From Escherichia phage vB_EcoS-22664BS2: a stretch of 45,176 nucleotides of DNA. The notes under the pieces were generated by a model that saw nothing but the letters and a program-made list of their open reading frames with translations, did not search any database and was not told where the DNA came from. Below are positions 7,111 through 43,447 of this stretch, piece by piece. Position 1 is the first letter of the stretch; every line of letters begins with the position of its first letter. Position numbers and translations under genes: made by a program. The DNA lies in sequence record NC_073324.1; one strand, given 5' to 3'.

Positions 7111-7392
7111 CTATACAAATGTAAATCCAGTGCTGGTAGCGGTGTAACTGGTGGCGCCGTTTTTCGTTTCGGGCCAACAGATATACGAGCGCCCGCGATA
7201 CTCTACCCACCAAAGTTCCACATCGGAGTCCCCGTTAGGTCTAGTCAACCACCCGTGGTGTAGCCAATACTTGCGCCCTATTTTAAATATATCTTCTTCA
7301 CTGGAAGTCCACTCCTGAGCGACACACTCTACCTGAACGCTATCAACACATACACATGTAAGATATAAATCACTGTTTGAATATTTAGCCAT
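7111..7392 (-). CDS. hypothetical protein (93 aa), moron-like insert in head module
   Basis: Internal ATG at codon 37 of track ORF; own promoter and RBS; opposite orientation to flanking structural genes. Confidence 0.5.
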   Translation of the reverse strand: MAKYSNSDLYLTCVCVDSVQVECVAQEWTSSEEDIFKIGRKYWLHHGWLTRPNGDSDVELWWVEYRGRSYICWPETKNGATSYTATSTGFTFV

Positions 7393-7427: not shown

Positions 7428-7456
7428 ATAGTACCCTATTATGTTGGTGTCTGCAA
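7428..7456 (-). promoter_or_regulatory. sigma70-like promoter (TTGCAG-N17-TACTAT) for 7111..7392
   Basis: Read on minus strand; member of the conserved promoter family. Confidence 0.5.
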
Positions 7457-9007: not shown

Positions 9008-9036
9008 AAAAGGCCCCATTAAGGGGCCTTAGTTTT
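9008..9036. terminator. bidirectional terminator between convergent genes
   Basis: AAAGGCCCC...GGGGCCTT hairpin with T/A runs on both sides. Confidence 0.6.
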
Positions 9037-9239
9037 CAACGGAATCTTGTGTTTAAATCCTGCTCGTGGACGACCCTCAGAACAGTGTCATAATCCCCGT
9101 ATCTTCCAGGTTCAAATATATCTAATGCCTTGTAAGCAGACATTGCGTCAGGGAAAACCTGCAGAACCTTTTTAACACGGCACAAGTCACCGTCGAACTC
9201 TTCATCGAACTCTTGAACTACTTCGCAAATTGCATACAT
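9036..9239 (-). CDS. hypothetical protein (67 aa), moron-like
   Basis: ORF track; own promoter, GGAGGTG RBS and terminator. Confidence 0.5.
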   Translation of the reverse strand: MYAICEVVQEFDEEFDGDLCRVKKVLQVFPDAMSAYKALDIFEPGRYGDYDTVLRVVHEQDLNTRFR

Positions 9240-9266: not shown

Positions 9267-9295
9267 ATAGTACCCTATTATATTGGGGTGCGCAA
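9267..9295 (-). promoter_or_regulatory. sigma70-like promoter (TTGCGC-N17-TACTAT) for 9036..9239
   Basis: Conserved promoter family. Confidence 0.5.
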
Positions 9296-14768: not shown

Positions 14769-15181
14769 TGGGCTACTTTGAGGACTTAACAAAAGCGTTT
14801 GATGTGCCGCTGGTAGCCTTCGGAACCACCAACGGCATCAAGGTAGCGCTTGAAAACATCGACGCGCCGACGTCAACAGATACGCCGTATCTGGCAAGTT
14901 ACATGTTGCTGGCGGATACCGAGCAGGCTGACTTATTCTTCACGGAACAACGCGCCGGTGTCTATCAGATAGACATTAACTACGCATCGGTGAAAGGTAG
15001 CGCGCCAATCAATAAAATGGCAGACTTACTTAACACGGCGTTTAAATCAGGTAAGGCATTTTCGCGTAACGACATCTGCGCCGAGGTTCAATCGGTTAGC
15101 CTGGGGCCGCTGATTGTAGAAAACGGATGGGCCAAACGACCATTGTCAATTAACTTTATTGCATTCACCAAGAGGCTGTGA
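14765..15181 (+). CDS. tail terminator/completion protein (putative)
   Basis: ORF track; directly before major tail protein. Confidence 0.45.
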   Translation: MMGYFEDLTKAFDVPLVAFGTTNGIKVALENIDAPTSTDTPYLASYMLLADTEQADLFFTEQRAGVYQIDINYASVKGSAPINKMADLLNTAFKSGKAFSRNDICAEVQSVSLGPLIVENGWAKRPLSINFIAFTKRL

Positions 15182-16350
15182 ATATGGCTACAACTCCTTT
15201 TAAGGGCGCGAATACCGCGCAATTCTATGTGGCGGAAAATACCCCTGGCGTAACACCGACTAACCCGGTATGGTCGCCGTTGCGTAACACGGGCGGCGTT
15301 CCCGCTGTAACCCGCGATGCACTGACTTCCAACGAACTGGACGGCAGCCGTGAAACTACATCCATCCGAACCGGTAACAAACAGGTTAGCGGGGAGTACG
15401 CCATCGAACTTAGCTCTCGTAGCCAGGATGATTTCCTTGCGGGAGCGATGACTTCTACGTGGCAAGCTGGGGTAGAGATTACTGGCGCCAAAATTACGGT
15501 CGCCCCAGCAGGTAAAACATTCACCCGCGCTGCCGGTAGCTTCATTACTGACGGTGTAGAAGTTGGCGACCTTATTGCGTTCACCGACTTAACCGGCGAC
15601 AACGCAAAACCGTTTATCGTGACCGCGGTTTCCGCTCTGGTAGTTACGGGCGCAGGTATTCAGCACACGCTGACAGCAGAGACAGTAACCACTGACGCAA
15701 AAACTGGCGACAAGCTGGAAACCGGTAACGCGTGTAAGACGTTCTCCATCCTGACGTGGTTCAAGGGCCAGTGTGGTAACCCGGACGCGTACATGCTGAC
15801 CAAAGGTGTGGAAATCTCTGGCTTTACCGTAGAGCAGGCGGTTAACGCCATGGTCACCGGCAGCTTCCCGTTCATCGGCCTGAGTCAGGAGATTCTTACC
15901 GCGCCGCCGTCTGGCTCTGATTTCTCTCAGGTTACGTTCACCGATGAGCCGTTCTCGTCGGTAGATGTGTCGGTGTTCGATGGCTCCACGCCGTTGCGTT
16001 GCGATACTCTCACCATCACCAACGACAACGGAGCTTCCGCGCAGTTCGAACTCGGTAACAGTAGCGTGGCGTTCGTCGAACGTGGACGCGCAGCTAACAC
16101 ATTCTCTATCTCTGGCAAGCTGTACGACATGGCGATGATTCAGAAGTTTATCAACGAGCAGCAGGTAGAGATTAACTCTATTCTGGCAGGGGTAAACGGG
16201 GCTATGTCTTTCAGTTTGAAACGTGCAGAGCTTACGGCGGTTACACCTGAGATTGGTGGGCCTGAGTCAATCACTCAGTCCATTGAAGGCCAGGCTACCG
16301 GCAATCAGTACCAGTCGTCTATCGTAATTCAACGTATCACCTACGCATAA
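15178..16350 (+). CDS. major tail protein (putative)
   Basis: 390 aa, last gene of the head-tail block, followed by strong terminator. Confidence 0.6.
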   Translation: MNMATTPFKGANTAQFYVAENTPGVTPTNPVWSPLRNTGGVPAVTRDALTSNELDGSRETTSIRTGNKQVSGEYAIELSSRSQDDFLAGAMTSTWQAGVEITGAKITVAPAGKTFTRAAGSFITDGVEVGDLIAFTDLTGDNAKPFIVTAVSALVVTGAGIQHTLTAETVTTDAKTGDKLETGNACKTFSILTWFKGQCGNPDAYMLTKGVEISGFTVEQAVNAMVTGSFPFIGLSQEILTAPPSGSDFSQVTFTDEPFSSVDVSVFDGSTPLRCDTLTITNDNGASAQFELGNSSVAFVERGRAANTFSISGKLYDMAMIQKFINEQQVEINSILAGVNGAMSFSLKRAELTAVTPEIGGPESITQSIEGQATGNQYQSSIVIQRITYA

Positions 16351-16354
16351 AACT

Positions 16355-16380
16355 AAGGCCCCTTTCGGGGCCTTTTTCTT
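16355..16380. terminator. bidirectional terminator
   Basis: AAGGCCCC-TTTC-GGGGCCTT hairpin plus T-run, between convergent genes. Confidence 0.6.
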
Positions 16381-16933
16381 ACAAACCTAATTTTAAAGCA
16401 ATGTCTATAACGTTCGATTTAACGTCACCCGGTATGATGTAGGTGTCGTAATCTTTTACACCACTAACATCGTACAGATAGCCACGGCTATCGCAGATGA
16501 ACGTATAGCCGTCACGATGGAGGCGGACGATTCGCACGTCATGCCCCGCGGCGACGATAGGGGCAACTTCACTGGCGAATCCACCATCGGACACTACAAA
16601 AACTTCGTCGCCGTCAGGCAAGTTTTCAGCAAGATACTTACCGAAATAATCATCGCCGAATACCGGTTTAATGAATTGCTCAGAAATGGCAATCATTAAC
16701 CGGCGGCGGGACAACCCATTAAGAAAACCCTCGGGTTTTTCTTTCCGCGCCCGGTCGTCGTAGCCGTCGAGAAATTCGTGGTAAGCATCCTGGCCTAACG
16801 CTGCCAAAGCAATATTGAACATTGGATTCTTGAAACTGGTAGTTCCTTTCGCAAAGCCCATTTCTACCAGCGCCATAGCAAGCGTGTCTTTCCCGCAACC
16901 CGCAGGGCCATTAAGAATAATTACCTTAGCCAT
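16379..16933 (-). CDS. P-loop nucleotide kinase, dNMP-kinase-like
   Basis: Walker A GPAGCGKDT and overall layout resemble T4-type deoxynucleoside monophosphate kinase. Confidence 0.55.
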   Translation of the reverse strand: MAKVIILNGPAGCGKDTLAMALVEMGFAKGTTSFKNPMFNIALAALGQDAYHEFLDGYDDRARKEKPEGFLNGLSRRRLMIAISEQFIKPVFGDDYFGKYLAENLPDGDEVFVVSDGGFASEVAPIVAAGHDVRIVRLHRDGYTFICDSRGYLYDVSGVKDYDTYIIPGDVKSNVIDIALKLGL

Positions 16934-17421
16934 TATTTATCGCTCCCGTGTGGTTTTAAGTGTGTAGAGTTCCCGTTACAGTCGTATTCGGTAACTGCGT
17001 GTGCGGTTATGCCGAGGTCACGGAAATGCTTTATTACCGCTGGAGAGTCGTCGAACGCACACAAGATTCTTTCCAGTCCGAAAGCACGCAACACCTCTTC
17101 TTTAATTACGATGTCTTTTCTGTTGTCGTGTTTGCTGCGCATGATTAGCGTGTCAAACCTAACGTTATTCTCTCGTAACCATTCGCGAGTCTCCTCCTCA
17201 GCGTCATCACTTCGCCCGGTAAGGATAATTATAGTAAGTCCGGAATGCCACAGTACGCTACACAAATGGATATTGTCGTATATCGGAGCGTCATCTTTGC
17301 AGGCCATGTTAAATGGCTTCCACGCCCACGTTTCTCCGTAGTTATCTTTTGGTAACAGGTGTAAGCGATGGGTACCGTCGGCCAATGTCCCGTCTAAATC
17401 GAAAATTACAATATCTTTCAT
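16933..17421 (-). CDS. HAD-superfamily phosphatase (nucleotidase or 3'-phosphatase-like)
   Basis: N-terminal FDLDGTL motif (DxDGT); small capless HAD. Confidence 0.6.
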   Translation of the reverse strand: MKDIVIFDLDGTLADGTHRLHLLPKDNYGETWAWKPFNMACKDDAPIYDNIHLCSVLWHSGLTIIILTGRSDDAEEETREWLRENNVRFDTLIMRSKHDNRKDIVIKEEVLRAFGLERILCAFDDSPAVIKHFRDLGITAHAVTEYDCNGNSTHLKPHGSDK

Positions 17422-18548
17422 CCCAGCATCTCCGGTGAAATAGTTAAACGTGCGACCTCGCCATATTCGGCGCTATAAGTAATTACATTTGCACTGCGGC
17501 CCGACATCCATCCGCCGCGAGAGGCGTAGGCGTCTTTAGCCGCTAAGGTGCGGTGTTGCTCAACAATCATGTTACGGCTTTCTACAATCTTCTGGTGGTG
17601 CAGATGGCCTACGTGGGCGTAGCTGTAAACACTCTCGCCGAACGCTTTACGGAACTTGGCAATCATAACCGGTTCGATAGCGTCGAATCGTGCTTTATGC
17701 CCGTGATGGAAGAACAGCGTCGTTTTGCCGTGTTGCACCATCTTGTAAACATCCGGCGACGTATCAACAATCACTCGGCTGTCGTTTGAGTATAAAACCG
17801 TGAACATTTCGGCAAGCCATACGGAGCCAACAGGGTCGTGGTTACCTTGAACGATTAAAAGTTTTACTGTGTGATGCTTAACCAGCGCCATATCAACAAC
17901 ACGGCGGACCATACGAATCATGTAACGTACCAGTTTCTGATAGCGAGTATCCGCATCTAATACATGGCGCGACTCGGGGGTAACGGCATCAAGACTATCG
18001 AAGTGTGCGAAGTCCCCAAGCAGGTTAATAACTCCTGTTCCTGCATCCGGTGCTTTCTGAAACGCCGCGTCGAACCACCGAGAGAACAGGTCTTCTGCAA
18101 TCTTCATGTCCCAGTCGTCGCCGCTCTCATCGGCCCATGCCAGCATACCGAGATGGAAATCAGATACAGTGTAAAGATTGAGTAGCTTGTCGTCACGTTT
18201 GGCGCGCGCCGCTTTAACAGGCGCAACGGGCGTAATCTCTGACTTCATGCCCTCTATTACGGCTTTCATCAATTCAACCTGACGTTCGGCGTCGGTATCA
18301 GTCTTAACCCATTGCAACTTAGTGTTGCCGAACTCGTCCACAAGTGACGACGTTCCTTTAATCTTGTAGCCGTCTGGCACAAGGTGGCTAACGTCGCGCC
18401 CGTGGCCCACGCCTTTCTTAGCCAGCTTCGCTTTACGGATACGAATTACGCGGTCTGAGATGCCGTATTTACGGGCGATATCTACATTCTTCATACCGGC
18501 GTTCAATTCTTCCTGCAACTGTTCGTCGGTTATTTTCTTCCGGGCCAT
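17418..18548 (-). CDS. metallophosphoesterase with N-terminal HTH domain
   Basis: Calcineurin-like motifs DFH, GDFAHFD, GNHD, HHGH, GHLHH; N-terminal segment NVDIARKYGISDRVIRIRK is HTH-like. Confidence 0.6.
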   Translation of the reverse strand: MARKKITDEQLQEELNAGMKNVDIARKYGISDRVIRIRKAKLAKKGVGHGRDVSHLVPDGYKIKGTSSLVDEFGNTKLQWVKTDTDAERQVELMKAVIEGMKSEITPVAPVKAARAKRDDKLLNLYTVSDFHLGMLAWADESGDDWDMKIAEDLFSRWFDAAFQKAPDAGTGVINLLGDFAHFDSLDAVTPESRHVLDADTRYQKLVRYMIRMVRRVVDMALVKHHTVKLLIVQGNHDPVGSVWLAEMFTVLYSNDSRVIVDTSPDVYKMVQHGKTTLFFHHGHKARFDAIEPVMIAKFRKAFGESVYSYAHVGHLHHQKIVESRNMIVEQHRTLAAKDAYASRGGWMSGRSANVITYSAEYGEVARLTISPEMLG

Positions 18549-18585
18549 GTTTATTCCTCGTGCTTAGGATTTGTCCTATACTAGC

Positions 18586-18777
18586 TCACTTCTCTTTGAC
18601 ATTCGAGTTGCAAGCCCAGATTAAAATAAATACCCACGGCAGCAGAACCCATCCAAGAAACAGATTAGCCATGAATATCGCTAATTTCGCTTTATGGTCG
18701 CGCATATGCGCCACGAGAAATGGAATAAAATAAACTAAAACGATAATGATTAAGAAGAACATAGTAATACCCGTCAT
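18586..18777 (-). CDS. small membrane protein, superinfection-immunity-like
   Basis: ATG at codon 47 of track ORF; two TM segments; NLFLGWVLLPWVFILIWA resembles the Imm family signature (from memory). Confidence 0.4.
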   Translation of the reverse strand: MTGITMFFLIIIVLVYFIPFLVAHMRDHKAKLAIFMANLFLGWVLLPWVFILIWACNSNVKEK

Positions 18778-18818
18778 GGTGTAGCTCCTGTTTGGGATAA
18801 CATCGTTGGTGTAAGTGA

Positions 18819-18847
18819 ATAGTACACTATTATATTGGGGTGTGCAA
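18819..18847 (-). promoter_or_regulatory. sigma70-like promoter (TTGCAC-N17-TACTAT) for the minus-strand cassette
   Basis: Conserved promoter family. Confidence 0.5.
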
Positions 18848-18954
18848 GTAATGTGATAGAATAATTTTGCGCCTAGTGTCGCACACGAAAAGCGGGTGGT
18901 TCCCGTCTGGCGCATTAACCTTAACCCGTAACCTCTTAACCAAAGGATTAAAGA

Positions 18955-19371
18955 ATGAAACTTTCTGATTTTTATTACGAAGCTGAGGCAGAAAAAGGCG
19001 CCCGTATGCCGATCCCACTGAAAGACGGCACCGATTCAGGGGAGTGGCTGAACGTTGTTTCACCGGAGGCAGACGTTGCGGTTAAAGCCATGCGTGCATT
19101 TACCCTGGCGTACCGCGCGTCGTTAGGTAAACTGAAGCCGCTTCGTGATAAATGCGAGGAACTGAAAGATTTCTCGGAATATAACATTAAGATGGAAGAC
19201 GCCGCGACGGACCTTAACCGCCAGTTAGCACTTGAACTGGTTAACGGTTGGAGTCTCGACGATGAATTTAATAAAGAGAACCTGAATACTCTTTTTTCAC
19301 AATATAAACGCCTCGCTGAACACGTTGTTGTTTTCCACAACGAACAGCTTCACCAATTGCAGGAAAAGTAG
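18955..19371 (+). CDS. tail assembly chaperone (lambda G-like)
   Basis: 138 aa acidic protein directly upstream of tape measure; a -1 frame ORF is open across its stop. Confidence 0.6.
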   Translation: MKLSDFYYEAEAEKGARMPIPLKDGTDSGEWLNVVSPEADVAVKAMRAFTLAYRASLGKLKPLRDKCEELKDFSEYNIKMEDAATDLNRQLALELVNGWSLDDEFNKENLNTLFSQYKRLAEHVVVFHNEQLHQLQEK

Positions 19372-19736
19372 ACGCGTTGCTCCAGTTTGCCCGTTGGAAC
19401 TTCATAACTCGCCACAAACGGCGGGAGTTTGACAGTATCTCCGACGGGCATAAAGCCGCGCTAATTGCTATGGGGGTTATGCAAGACGCGCCGGAAGCAA
19501 CGCAGGACACCGGGCCAGAATGCCCCCCTGAGCTATTAACCACCTTCGAGAAGTACAGGGAAATCAAATTCACCCGCCGAGTGGACGATGATGGCATCAA
19601 GATGTATCCGCGTGAACAGTTAAGATGGTCGGATTTAGTGGCATATAGCACCGTTTCAGGCCAGAATATAGGCATGTTTGAATCTGACATCATCATGAGC
19701 TTAGACGCTATTTTCGAGGGTAGAAACGATGGCTGA
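18955..19736 (+). other. predicted -1 frameshift fusion product of the tail chaperone (G-T-like)
   Basis: -1 frame is open from before the chaperone stop to 19736; candidate slip site AGGAAAAG at 19361-19368, just before TAG. Confidence 0.4.
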
Positions 19737-22068
19737 TGTAGCTAGTTTAGTTGTAAAAGTATCAGAGCAAGGCGCGAAAGCTACATCAGACCGTCTTGAT
19801 AACCTTTCCAAGTCTGCAAAGGTAGCCGGAGCTGCGGTAGCGGGCCTCGCTTCCATCGTCGCCGCTACCGCTTACAAGGCCGCACAGGAACTGGTAGAAT
19901 CCCAACGGCAACTGGACAAGATGTCCGCCAGCCTGAAAACACTAACCGGAAGCACGCAGGGTGCAAGACAGGCGTTAAGCATCCTGCAAGACTTCGCGCG
20001 CGACACTCCGTATGGCCTTGAACAGGCGGTAGAGGGATTCCGTAAACTTGTGGCGCTTGGTCTTACACCGTCAGAAGAAGCGTTGCGTTCCTACGGAAAC
20101 ACCGCCGCTGCTATGGGTAAAGACCTGAATCAGATGATTGAGGCGGTTGCAGACGCTAGTACTTTTGAATTTGAGCGCCTTAAAGAATTTGGTATCAAGG
20201 CCAAACAGAACAAAAACGATGTTGAATTTACATTCCAGGGTACTACTACGGTAGTTAAGAAGAGCGCTGCCGACATCGAGCAATACCTGCTCAACATCGG
20301 TAACGTAAACTTCGCGGGGGCTATGGCGGACCAGGCCAACACACTTAACGGGGCCATCGCCAGTGCCAGCGACTCATGGTCGCAGTTAAAAATGACACTG
20401 GCTACCAGTCTTGATGTTGGTGCGCTCGCCGAACCTATCCGATACATCGATGATTTAATCCAGGAACTTAACGCACAGGTTGCATCCGGTGAACTTGCCG
20501 CAGAGATGCGTATGTGGGGTGACATCGCGTCGGAAGTAGGAAGCGCAATAGAGATGTCATTCGACGCGGCATTTGGTTTCGTGGGTGATGCGATAAACGG
20601 GCTAAATGAGCTTTGGGATTTTAGTAGCAAAAGTATCACGGATAGCGGCGAACAAACGGCGACAACCATAGCGGAATCAGCCGCCGATGCGCTCGATTTC
20701 ATCGCGGAAGAATTTACCGCGATGGAGCGCTTCTTTGAGGATATGGTTAAAGGGGCGCAGGATGCCGGTCGGCTGGTTAAGGCCGCCTTCACACCAGGGG
20801 AATCCGTAGACGTAGCAAAAAATATTAACTTCCAGCTGGGGATGGCACTGGATACTCAGCGCGACGTTGCGGACCTGACACGTAAAAGTTTCCGCGAACA
20901 GGTGGAGGCTCAGCAAAATATCGTCGCGCTTAAACGCGCAGCGTATGACATCGACAAAGAAGCCGCTAAGGAAGAAGGGCTTAGTAAATTTAAGGTAACT
21001 GGTACCGGCGGCGGATCTGAAGATGATAGCGCGGGTGCAAAAGCCGCTAAGAAAGCAGCGGATGCGTTCGAGCGCCAGAAGAAAGCCGCGGAGGATTTCT
21101 ACTATCAGTCAATTCATCTCAATGATGACGTATTCCAGAAAATAGAAGCCAACCAGGAACAGCAGTTAACCAAGCTACAGGAGTTTTACGGCAATCAGCT
21201 TCTTAGCGACCAGCAGTACGAAAACGCCAAGACGCAGATTATGCTGGAAGCGGACACTGCTCGCCAGGAGGAACTCGCTAAACGAGAGAAAGAACGGCAG
21301 GAAAAGAACCAGAAAGGTGAAGACTTCATGGCTCAGATTATGGGTCAGAACGCCGCTGAGCTTGAGCTTCTCAACATTCAGGAACAGCAGAAACTGTCGG
21401 TAGCAGATAAGTACCGCGAGCAGGGTTTGATTAGTGAGAAGCAGTATCAGGCTGCGCTTAATGCCATCAACGAGCAGTACGCCACGAAGCGTGCCGACGC
21501 AACGGCAACGGCCTTCGGTAACATGGCCTCAAACATCGGTTCGGCTTTGGGCGAGGCTTCTGGCGCGTACAAGGCATTCGCTATCGTGCAGGCCACTATA
21601 GCCACGTACACCGCGGCTATTGAGGCGTATAAGTCAACAGCGGCTATCCCTGTAGTTGGCCCGTTCCTGGCTCCTGTAGCTGCCGCTGCTGCCGTTGGGG
21701 CGGGTATGGCGCAGATTTCCGCTATCAGGTCCGCACGTGAACAGGGCGGACAGTTATCCGCGGGGCAGGCTTCAACCATCGCCGAACGCGGTAAACCAGA
21801 AGTTATCATGCCCGCTGGTGCGTCACGTGTACGCACCGCACAGCAGATGAAAGAAATTATGGGGCAAAACGGGTCTTCTTCCGGACCGTCTAATGTTACT
21901 ATCGTAAACAACACGAGTTCTCAAATCGGCAACGTATCCACTGAGCAAGATGATGAAGGCCGTTTGCGTATCATCATCGAGGAGCAAGTGGCTGCCTCTT
22001 TGCAGAACAGTAACAGTAAGATTAGCAAGGCCCGCAAGGCCACAAGAAATGCGCCGGGGTTTAAATAA
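19729..22068 (+). CDS. tape measure protein
   Basis: 779 aa, Ala/Gln/Glu-rich coiled coil, follows chaperone pair. Confidence 0.85.
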   Translation: MADVASLVVKVSEQGAKATSDRLDNLSKSAKVAGAAVAGLASIVAATAYKAAQELVESQRQLDKMSASLKTLTGSTQGARQALSILQDFARDTPYGLEQAVEGFRKLVALGLTPSEEALRSYGNTAAAMGKDLNQMIEAVADASTFEFERLKEFGIKAKQNKNDVEFTFQGTTTVVKKSAADIEQYLLNIGNVNFAGAMADQANTLNGAIASASDSWSQLKMTLATSLDVGALAEPIRYIDDLIQELNAQVASGELAAEMRMWGDIASEVGSAIEMSFDAAFGFVGDAINGLNELWDFSSKSITDSGEQTATTIAESAADALDFIAEEFTAMERFFEDMVKGAQDAGRLVKAAFTPGESVDVAKNINFQLGMALDTQRDVADLTRKSFREQVEAQQNIVALKRAAYDIDKEAAKEEGLSKFKVTGTGGGSEDDSAGAKAAKKAADAFERQKKAAEDFYYQSIHLNDDVFQKIEANQEQQLTKLQEFYGNQLLSDQQYENAKTQIMLEADTARQEELAKREKERQEKNQKGEDFMAQIMGQNAAELELLNIQEQQKLSVADKYREQGLISEKQYQAALNAINEQYATKRADATATAFGNMASNIGSALGEASGAYKAFAIVQATIATYTAAIEAYKSTAAIPVVGPFLAPVAAAAAVGAGMAQISAIRSAREQGGQLSAGQASTIAERGKPEVIMPAGASRVRTAQQMKEIMGQNGSSSGPSNVTIVNNTSSQIGNVSTEQDDEGRLRIIIEEQVAASLQNSNSKISKARKATRNAPGFK

Positions 22069-31895: not shown

Positions 31896-32180
31896 CTAAC
31901 TATAATAGTTCGCTATTAGGTCGTCAACCTGTTTAAACGAACCAACGACAAAAACATTTGCACCGCGTTTACGGAATCTTTCATGCTCGCGTAACTGGTG
32001 GGGGTCAGGCTTCGTGTTTTCGTCTTTCTTAATCTCGACGAACCAGATGATACCGCCGGGGAGAATTACCAGCAGGTCCATGGCGGCTCGCCGGCCTTCA
32101 AATGCCATCTTGCGAACGAGGCCACCAATGGCCTCGAATCGCTCTTTTGCGTATTTCTGAATCTTGCCTTCCGGGGTCAT
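31896..32180 (-). CDS. VRR-NUC nuclease
   Basis: DLLVILPGG...FVEIKK pattern (PD-(D/E)XK core). Confidence 0.6.
   Translation of the reverse strand: MTPEGKIQKYAKERFEAIGGLVRKMAFEGRRAAMDLLVILPGGIIWFVEIKKDENTKPDPHQLREHERFRKRGANVFVVGSFKQVDDLIANYYS
31899..31927 (-). promoter_or_regulatory. sigma70-like promoter (TTGACG-N17-TATAGT)
   Basis: Conserved promoter family; lies in the 3' end of the upstream gene. Confidence 0.45.
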
Positions 32181-42095: not shown

Positions 42096-42147
42096 CGCTC
42101 GCCATCCCATTAAACAAAAGAATCACAACGGCAACGTAACTATTCTC

Positions 42148-42176
42148 TTGCACACCCCAACATAATAGGATACTAT
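42148..42176 (+). promoter_or_regulatory. sigma70-like promoter (TTGCAC-N17-TACTAT) for early operon
   Basis: Conserved promoter family; leader ATCGAAACGAGACAGAGGAG. Confidence 0.55.
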
Positions 42177-42210
42177 TCACTTATCGAAACGAGACAGAGG
42201 AGTGAGGGTT

Positions 42211-43335: not shown

Positions 43336-43418
43336 CATTTTTGTTCTATTTCACCAAACGCAACAATCGAAGCGACTATTGCAGGAGATGCAACAATACA
43401 AACACCAATAAAATTTAC

Positions 43419-43447
43419 TTGCACGCTGAGATGGAATAGGCTACTAT
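43419..43447 (+). promoter_or_regulatory. sigma70-like promoter (TTGCAC-N17-TACTAT)
   Basis: Conserved promoter family; leader ACGAGAGGAGAGACAGAG. Confidence 0.5.

Follow-up and report, generated by a model that had tools for sequence, protein, structure and literature searches.

Phages T1 and TLS break down the genome of their host and recycle its nucleotides, and the gene products responsible have not been identified (PMC11447400). A 2026 analysis of 522 Drexlerviridae found a gene for a "DNA repair exonuclease" in 508 of them. The genes most frequently seen immediately behind it encode a "polynucleotide kinase" and a "dNMP kinase," which, its authors suggested, boost the supply of nucleotides (PMC13164509). 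Two further enzymes are relevant here. T4 Pnkp uses Asp165 as nucleophile and Asp167 as acid-base, contacts phosphate through Ser211 and Lys258, and binds Mg through Asp278, its phosphatase substrates being 3'-dNMPs and 3'-phosphorylated DNA (PMC3592404). The metallophosphoesterase (MPE) of P. putida cuts single-stranded DNA in both orientations, leaving 3'-PO4 and 3'-OH ends (PMC7826289). In this work, we analyzed a 45,176-nucleotide (nt) stretch of DNA from Escherichia phage vB_EcoS-22664BS2 (NC_073324.1), hereafter the window, in which four minus-strand genes interrupt the plus-strand tail genes. They encode an Imm-type superinfection immunity protein, a helix-turn-helix (HTH)-fused MPE, a stand-alone HAD phosphatase, and a P-loop kinase of the deoxynucleoside monophosphate (dNMP) kinase type. 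Our favored reading, held with about even confidence, is that this cassette is an accessory operon in a fixed slot of the Guernseyvirinae, between the tail tube and tail assembly chaperone genes, and that MPE, HAD, and kinase would serve jointly in nucleotide salvage.

Judged from sequence, the 45-kb window is essentially the whole genome of a Kagunavirus (Guernseyvirinae). A megablast search with positions 15100–19800 matched 379 phage records, the closest being Escherichia phages BEU33, BEU35, and SHAK7858 (94% identity over the full query), followed by Golestan, XY1, and other Kagunavirus, and then by many Salmonella Jerseyvirus records. The annotated map of SHAK7858 served as our guide to the gene content of the rest of the window. 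The SHAK7858 record (OR594183.1) carries a taxonomy line reading Autographiviridae/Kayfunavirus and the name "EcoM," while the genome itself is that of a Kagunavirus-type siphophage. All four cassette genes are already annotated in public near-identical genomes, and the cassette is a member of a known module.

The gene arrangement put forward in the original prediction was confirmed. On the plus strand, the tail tube gene (15178–16350; Phage_tube_2, E 2.9e-37) lies on one side and two tail assembly chaperone genes (18955–19371 and 19377–19736) on the other. Between them, on the minus strand, are Imm (18586–18777; 63 aa, within a 109-aa open reading frame [ORF] at 18586–18915), MPE (17418–18548; 376 aa), HAD (16933–17421; 162 aa), and kinase (16379–16933; 184 aa). 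Since all four products have strong homologues, none is a chance ORF. The proposal that all four genes are translationally coupled stands for three of them. MPE and HAD overlap by 4 nt (ATGA) and HAD and kinase by 1 nt (TAATG), but a gap of 37 nt lies between Imm and MPE, the latter of which is preceded by a Shine-Dalgarno sequence of its own, so coupling is limited to MPE, HAD, and kinase, hereafter the trio.

Identity of the Four Cassette Proteins

The identities first assigned by eye, i.e., a small Imm-like protein with two transmembrane segments, an HTH-metallophosphoesterase fusion, a small HAD phosphatase, and a dNMP-kinase-like P-loop kinase, were all upheld by Pfam, PHROG, and structure comparison. 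Searches of the cassette against NCBIfam and PADLOC gave nothing useful.

The HAD phosphatase matches PF25109 (HAD_PNKP) over profile positions 2–140 of 143 (E 3.3e-20, 73.1 bits against a cut-off of 27.6), its PDB matches are Pnkp1 (4xrp) and T4 Pnkp (1ltq/5uj0), and it is 30% identical to residues 163–300 of T4-type PseT (E 2e-16). Residues D8, D10, T12, T68, K102, D124, and D125 are conserved in 31–34 of 34 distinct homologues, and the catalytic residues correspond to Asp165, Asp167, Ser211, Lys258, and Asp278 of T4 Pnkp. By family and with its catalytic residues complete, the protein is thus classified as a predicted stand-alone 3'-phosphatase of the T4 Pnkp type. It spans the entire phosphatase domain of PseT/Pnkp and keeps the catalytic and Mg-binding residues, but it has no fused kinase, the adjacent kinase is unlike the PseT kinase beyond the P-loop, and no RNA ligase partner is encoded. 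The gene, which is commonly annotated "polynucleotide kinase," therefore encodes a phosphatase only, a correction that is relevant to phage therapy genomes. A similar stand-alone HAD is found in Krischvirus GEC-3S (our locus L168, 3498–3974), where it bears the same annotation, overlaps the end of nrdB, and is co-transcribed with nrdA and nrdB. It is 44% identical to the window HAD, versus 30% for the PseT domain, and the same record contains a second, weaker match to the window HAD that is presumably its PseT.

The kinase hits phrog_139 (E 3e-44) in the profile region that T4 gp1 also covers, and it falls in none of the PHROGs that hold PseT kinases. By structure it is closest to T4 dNMP kinase (1DEK), and a GKD(T) variant of the P-loop is common to both. 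A sequence-only PDB search returned P-loop fragments only, the profile search only AAA+ P-loops, and the Pfam family PF21448 (DNMK) matched, weakly, a single one of 36 family members (E 0.044). On the basis of the structural model and PHROG membership, we assign the protein to the T4 gp1 type as a predicted dNMP kinase. On homology, the idea of a split polynucleotide kinase/3'-phosphatase is thus not supported, since only the HAD is Pnkp-derived. The competing suggestion, a pairing of dNMP kinase and 5'-nucleotidase as in T5, is right by half, the HAD being of the T4 Pnkp 3'-phosphatase type and not of the NT5C type. The location of the kinase gene also resembles that of its T4 counterpart: gene 1 of T4 (L086, 2650–3375) lies between the tail-fiber chaperone gene 57A and tail gene 3, so a dNMP kinase gene among morphogenesis genes has a classical precedent. 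A literature search for a role of phage dNMP kinases in defense or anti-defense found only genome announcements.

The third member of the trio has an HTH at residues 8–44, a beta-hairpin and helix at 61–104, and an MPE domain at 119–376. The N-terminal HTH resembles GerE/sigma-70 region 4. In structure comparison, the model is closest to PolD-DP1, SbcD, and Mre11, and the protein shares with Mre11/SbcD, PolD DP1, and the P. putida MPE the fold, the five MPE metal-binding motifs, and the histidines of the nuclease-type GDxxH and GNHD motifs. Across 35 homologues with 32–51% identity, there is no variation at D130, H132, D179, N236, H237, H282, or H317, and H315 is kept in at least 90%. The window protein differs from Mre11, SbcD, and DP1 by the added N-terminal HTH and beta-hairpin/helix module, and no solved structure is significantly similar to it in sequence: a sequence-only PDB search gave HTH fragments only, and the profile search reached Mre11 and SbcD at E values of about 0.6–0.9. 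By modeled fold and motifs, it is nevertheless of the nuclease type. SHAK7858 has no annotated Rad50/SbcC-like partner, so the protein does not belong to a canonical SbcCD system. The window encodes just one other nuclease, a PD-(D/E)XK/DUF2800 protein; its gene, in the replication module, has been published as "SbcD," and we rejected it as a second MPE paralogue.

These properties bear on a possible role in counter-defense, in which MPE would cleave cyclic (oligo)nucleotide alarm signals while HAD and kinase reset nucleotide pools depleted by a defense system. The top structural matches are DNA nucleases, GDxxH and GNHD are nuclease-type motifs, the fusion to an HTH points to a DNA substrate, and links to such a role were found neither by PADLOC nor in the literature, all of which makes this explanation highly improbable.

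Imm, the first gene of the cassette, matches PF14373 over all 42 profile positions (E 3.6e-13, 49.6 bits against a cut-off of 27.9) and phrog_1039, "immunity to superinfection" (E 1.6e-23). The Pfam match falls in residues 61–102 of the 109-aa ORF. The likely start is the ATG at 18777, which is preceded at 8 nt by AGGAG and gives a product of 63 aa in which two hydrophobic stretches are visible. Like T4 Imm, the window protein is small, has two hydrophobic segments, and scores above the Pfam threshold for PF14373; it differs in its length of 63 aa and in that a quarter of relatives have an unrelated protein of 108 aa in its place. This protein, MRKLVLALGFMSFAAFGSPCE..., occupies the Imm slot in 11 of the 44 loci described below (e.g., L014, L016, and L028). 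Its N terminus is hydrophobic and, by eye, signal-peptide-like; the protein finds no match in Pfam and may be an alternative exclusion protein.

Conservation of the Slot and Distribution of the Trio

We wondered how the cassette varies among relatives. We collected 71 viral contigs by means of MPE and rebuilt the slot in the 44 loci, the window included, that retain both flanking tail genes. MPE is present in 44/44, which is partly by construction because the loci were found through it, and Kagunavirus, Jerseyvirus, and more distant relatives all have the slot with MPE in the same place. The remaining content is changeable. Imm is the first gene in about two thirds of the loci. HAD and kinase are found in 17/44, always together (17/17 loci with either), and they are mutually exclusive with a conserved 76-aa gene that follows MPE in 22 loci (e.g., L013, 7128–7355; MTSKYNRTMTNTHGSTMTVDVYDVLRAFDI...) and has no Pfam match. 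Other occupants are HNH endonucleases and a Rha/ANT protein. Counted as GenBank records, duplicates included, about 284 have MPE at 80% identity or more, compared with about 51 for kinase and about 55 for HAD; fFiEco03 and fBC-Eco01 have neither HAD nor kinase. This pattern of presence and absence indicates that the subfamily inherited the slot, together with its nuclease, from its ancestor and that Imm and the HAD/kinase pair are exchangeable cargo. Hence, the view of the cassette as a variable insert applies to the HAD/kinase pair, which other small genes replace elsewhere, but not to the cassette as a whole. The placement in the tail module, first described as unusual, is conserved in the subfamily and does not reflect a recent event. 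The trio in itself is not unusual, being common in Drexlerviridae and present in some Autographiviridae. Kagunaviruses that naturally have or lack the HAD/kinase pair provide a ready-made comparison set.

Two departures from this scheme concern MPE itself. In Escherichia phage XY1 (L002, 3302–5035), a divergent full-length MPE allele (59% identity) precedes a 187-aa ORF with 88% identity to the last 145 residues of the usual allele; from its sequence, this mosaic locus is a recombination scar within the core gene. In EK99P-1-like contigs of 44–45 kb (L050–L062), a 74%-identical MPE orthologue lies outside the tail module, in the interval from endolysin to terminase/portal and on the same strand, with no HAD and no kinase.

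The persistence of MPE in changing surroundings, seen in the 44 loci and in Drexlerviridae (PMC13164509), is what would be expected if it were a site-directed DNA-processing or regulatory protein, acting on replication or packaging intermediates or binding the palindrome in the cassette promoter (see below), and if Imm, HAD, and kinase were unrelated morons sharing one promoter. The HTH like that of GerE/sigma-70 region 4, the position of MPE directly before lysis or terminase genes in other lineages, and the admission of HNH, Rha/ANT, and small unknown genes to the slot are all in line with this alternative, as is the presence of a palindrome over the -10 element of all five copies of the promoter, although the link between HTH and palindrome is hypothetical. 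The metal-binding and nuclease-type residues are all invariant, however, which suggests an enzyme and not a DNA binder only, and in three phage lineages the trio is inherited together, its members similarly diverged and its junctions tight or overlapping. We consider this explanation unlikely but a serious alternative.

More distant kinase homologues led us to the trio in other phages. T1-like contigs have MPE, HAD_PNKP, and kinase in this order, with holin and lysozyme next, and in Klebsiella phage KP36 the trio corresponds to gp63–gp65, with a terminator after the kinase gene. T7-like contigs and Pseudomonas phage MR4 have MPE, HAD, and kinase, in this order, between endonuclease VII and DNA ligase. 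Identities of MPE, HAD, and kinase to the window proteins are 43/50/50% and 39/48/43% in T1-like contigs and 48/55/51% in a T7-like contig. Because the three proteins are similarly divergent within each lineage, inheritance as a unit fits. The Drexlerviridae version, exemplified by KP36, has the same families in the same order, tight or overlapping junctions, the terminator after kinase, and protein identities to the window of about 40% (MPE), 55% (HAD), and 41% (kinase); as in the group of the window, MPE persists and HAD and kinase may be absent. In contrast to the window, where the trio is counter-oriented within the tail module and preceded by Imm, the Drexlerviridae trio lies with replication genes on the same strand, directly upstream of holin/endolysin.

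Kinase genes also occur without the rest of the trio. Among 80 kinase loci, 23 have the trio, 12 have HAD and kinase, 44 have kinase alone, and in one the kinase is split over two ORFs. The neighbors of the lone kinases include DNA ligase (eight members match DNA_ligase_OB_2), T7-type RNA polymerase (six), dUTPase (five), and dCTP-deaminase-like proteins (two), as well as ThyX, ribonucleotide reductase, NT5C, and an Rnl2-type RNA ligase (one each). In two further contigs, dCMP deaminase and DUF4406 are found beside the kinase.

The ligases in this list are pertinent to another explanation, that the trio heals nucleic acid ends in the manner of PNKP. HAD would remove 3'-phosphate or 2',3'-cyclic phosphate, the gp1-like kinase would phosphorylate 5'-OH polynucleotide ends, MPE would possibly be a cyclic phosphodiesterase or an end-trimming nuclease, and a ligase could reseal breaks inflicted by host defense nucleases or by the nuclease of the phage itself. 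DNA ligase is the commonest neighbor of the lone kinases, it directly follows kinase in T7-like contexts, and a ligase lies two genes downstream in L010, while one neighbor is the Rnl2-type RNA ligase. HAD is unambiguously of the Pnkp phosphatase type with complete catalytic residues, and HAD and kinase are accessory genes gained and lost together, as would be expected of a counter-defense add-on. In mammalian PNKP, the phosphatase domain precedes the kinase domain, an order mirrored by the HAD and kinase genes. Furthermore, MPE nucleases can leave 3'-PO4 ends (PMC7826289). Set against these points, the kinase fails the homology test for a Pnkp 5'-kinase domain, the window has no ligase according to the annotation of SHAK7858, and the neighbors of the kinase relatives are mostly nucleotide-pool enzymes. 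The adjacency to ligase in T7-like phages may merely reflect their class II block of DNA-metabolism genes, and the Krischvirus with a second HAD match, presumably PseT, still has a stand-alone HAD beside nrdB. There is also no PADLOC hit and no known association with anti-defense. Taken together, we regard end healing as improbable.

Nucleotide Salvage as the Favored Reading

Several lines of evidence led us to favor nucleotide salvage as the joint role of MPE, HAD, and kinase. First, kinase relatives without HAD adjoin genes for dUTPase, dCTP/dCMP deaminase, ThyX, ribonucleotide reductase, NT5C, and DUF4406. Second, the stand-alone HAD of GEC-3S is co-transcribed with nrdA and nrdB. Third, the trio is co-inherited, and HAD and kinase are paired in every slot that contains either. 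Further points in favor are the complete Pnkp-type phosphatase represented by HAD, the nuclease-type fold and motifs of MPE, the reuse of host nucleotides by T1 and TLS (PMC11447400), the proposal made for Drexlerviridae (PMC13164509), and the near identity of the cassette promoter to that heading the small-gene region (see below). A 3'-phosphatase has a rationale in such a pathway because a bacterial MPE nuclease leaves 3'-PO4 ends too (PMC7826289).

Starting from the identities, the folds, the conserved catalytic residues, the co-inheritance of the trio, and the presence/absence patterns, we propose the following substrates and physiological role. Imm, as an inner-membrane protein, would block DNA entry of superinfecting phages. 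HTH-MPE would act as a Mn-dependent DNA nuclease and degrade DNA, HAD would strip 3'-phosphates from the ends or from 3'(,5')-phosphorylated nucleotides, and the kinase would turn the resulting 5'-dNMPs into deoxynucleoside diphosphates (dNDPs) for phage DNA synthesis. The attractive but unsupported picture of a split RNA-repair PNKP lodged in a tail module gives way to that of a mobile unit of predicted nuclease, 3'-phosphatase, and dNMP kinase that Guernseyvirinae and Drexlerviridae have in common with some T7-like phages.

Several observations weigh against this reading. Judged by the SHAK7858 annotation, the window has no other nucleotide-metabolism genes. MPE belongs to the core and the HAD/kinase pair does not, so MPE must have some role in which the pair is dispensable. 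In addition, phiEc3 keeps HAD without kinase. The positions of MPE elsewhere, tied to the lysis cassette in Drexlerviridae (PMC13164509) and just upstream of the terminase genes in EK99P-1-like phages, are not suggestive of salvage. Moreover, a 3'-phosphatase and a 5'-dNMP kinase form no obligatory pathway. Finally, the transcriptome of a Kagunavirus places the Imm gene among the late-peaking genes (PMC12645636), although its timing is indecisive because the 120-minute sampling covers several infection cycles and DNA polymerase is classed as late as well (PMC12645636).

A bolder version of nucleotide salvage would make HTH-MPE the nuclease that degrades the host chromosome in T1-like phages and, by extension, in Guernseyvirinae. 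It would cut in both orientations, as the P. putida MPE does, and HAD and kinase would form a "clean and charge" line leading from 3'-phosphorylated products to dNDPs. The trio would then be a three-enzyme salvage module that passes as a unit from one phage family to another. We think it rather unlikely that this version is correct in full. The genes by which T1-like phages break down host DNA have yet to be assigned (PMC11447400), which makes the trio a concrete candidate.

Predicted Promoter, Terminator, and Leader RNA

The claim that the cassette is a promoter-to-terminator unit running against the genes on both sides was borne out. Its predicted promoter is at 18819–18847 (minus strand), with a -35 element TTGCAC (18847–18842), a 17-nt spacer, and a -10 element TACTAT (18824–18819). 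An initial promoter scan had proposed ATCACA-17-TATAAT at 18857..18829, the TATAAT of which (18834–18829) overlaps the promoter that we favor. We prefer TTGCAC/TACTAT because it is conserved among relatives and has four other copies in the window. In an intergenic alignment, TTGCA(C/T), 17 nt, and TA(C/T)TAT are in register across Kagunavirus, Jerseyvirus, and more distant loci.

The promoter belongs to a repeated element of about 33 nt, (C/T)TTGC..AC.CCAA.ATAATAG..TACTATTCA, with five copies in the window. Besides the one heading the cassette, these lie at 7428–7456 (−) and 9267–9295 (−), each preceding a small minus-strand gene in the head module, and at 42148–42176 (+) and about 43418–43447 (+), in a region of small genes. 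Every full copy is 25–40 nt upstream of a ribosome-binding site and ATG. A pattern search added partial copies at 31901, 35457, and 38263 (+), and the 16-nt core of the element has eight matches in the window versus 0.21 expected. A palindrome, TAATAG-N4-CTATT(A), overlaps the spacer and -10 in all five copies. It reads AATAG-N4-CTATT (18831–18818) in the cassette promoter, and both 6-bp arms are perfect in the Jerseyvirus promoter.

The cassette promoter is 31/34 identical to the copy at 42147–42180 (+), which lies beside a divergent control region with an HTH_17 regulator. As a predicted sigma70-like promoter, it is thus of the same type as that at the head of the small-gene, early-looking region, and because of this near identity the cassette is expected to be co-regulated with the 42-kb region and probably expressed early. 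The five copies probably mark one candidate promoter/operator regulon that includes the cassette.

At the other end of the cassette, a hairpin at 16355–16374 (-19.9 kcal/mol, z -4.15) has an 8-bp stem, six pairs of which are G-C, and a run of T on each strand. We take it as a predicted bidirectional intrinsic terminator common to the cassette and the tail tube gene.

The two small counter-oriented genes in the head module, at about 7111–7377 (−) and 9036–9239 (−), encode proteins of about 88 and 67 aa, neither of which has a Pfam match. Each stands behind a copy of the cassette-type promoter.

Upstream of the first chaperone gene, we noticed a candidate structured RNA leader at 18866–18930 (+), continuing to the chaperone ATG at 18955. 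It lies between that gene and a weak predicted plus-strand promoter (TTGGGG at 18835–18840, 16 nt, TAGAAT at 18857–18862) that overlaps the cassette -35 on the opposite strand. We rejected the conserved segment upstream of the chaperone gene as a repeated late-promoter motif because it occurs only once in the window. At E ≤0.05, Rfam has no other match in the window than this leader, which covers the full int-alpA model (RF02996). Its score of 31.6 bits is below the gathering threshold of 35.8 and none of six related loci matches at E 0.05 or better, so membership in int-alpA is not established. Among 14 Guernseyvirinae variants, a three-helix fold has 93.9% of cells paired, versus 37–52% with slid partners, and five base pairs show changes on both sides; this predicted fold is thus supported by covariation. 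Three to four conserved UAACC repeats follow the leader, the last abutting the Shine-Dalgarno sequence, and the loop of helix P3, UGGUU, is complementary to AACCA.

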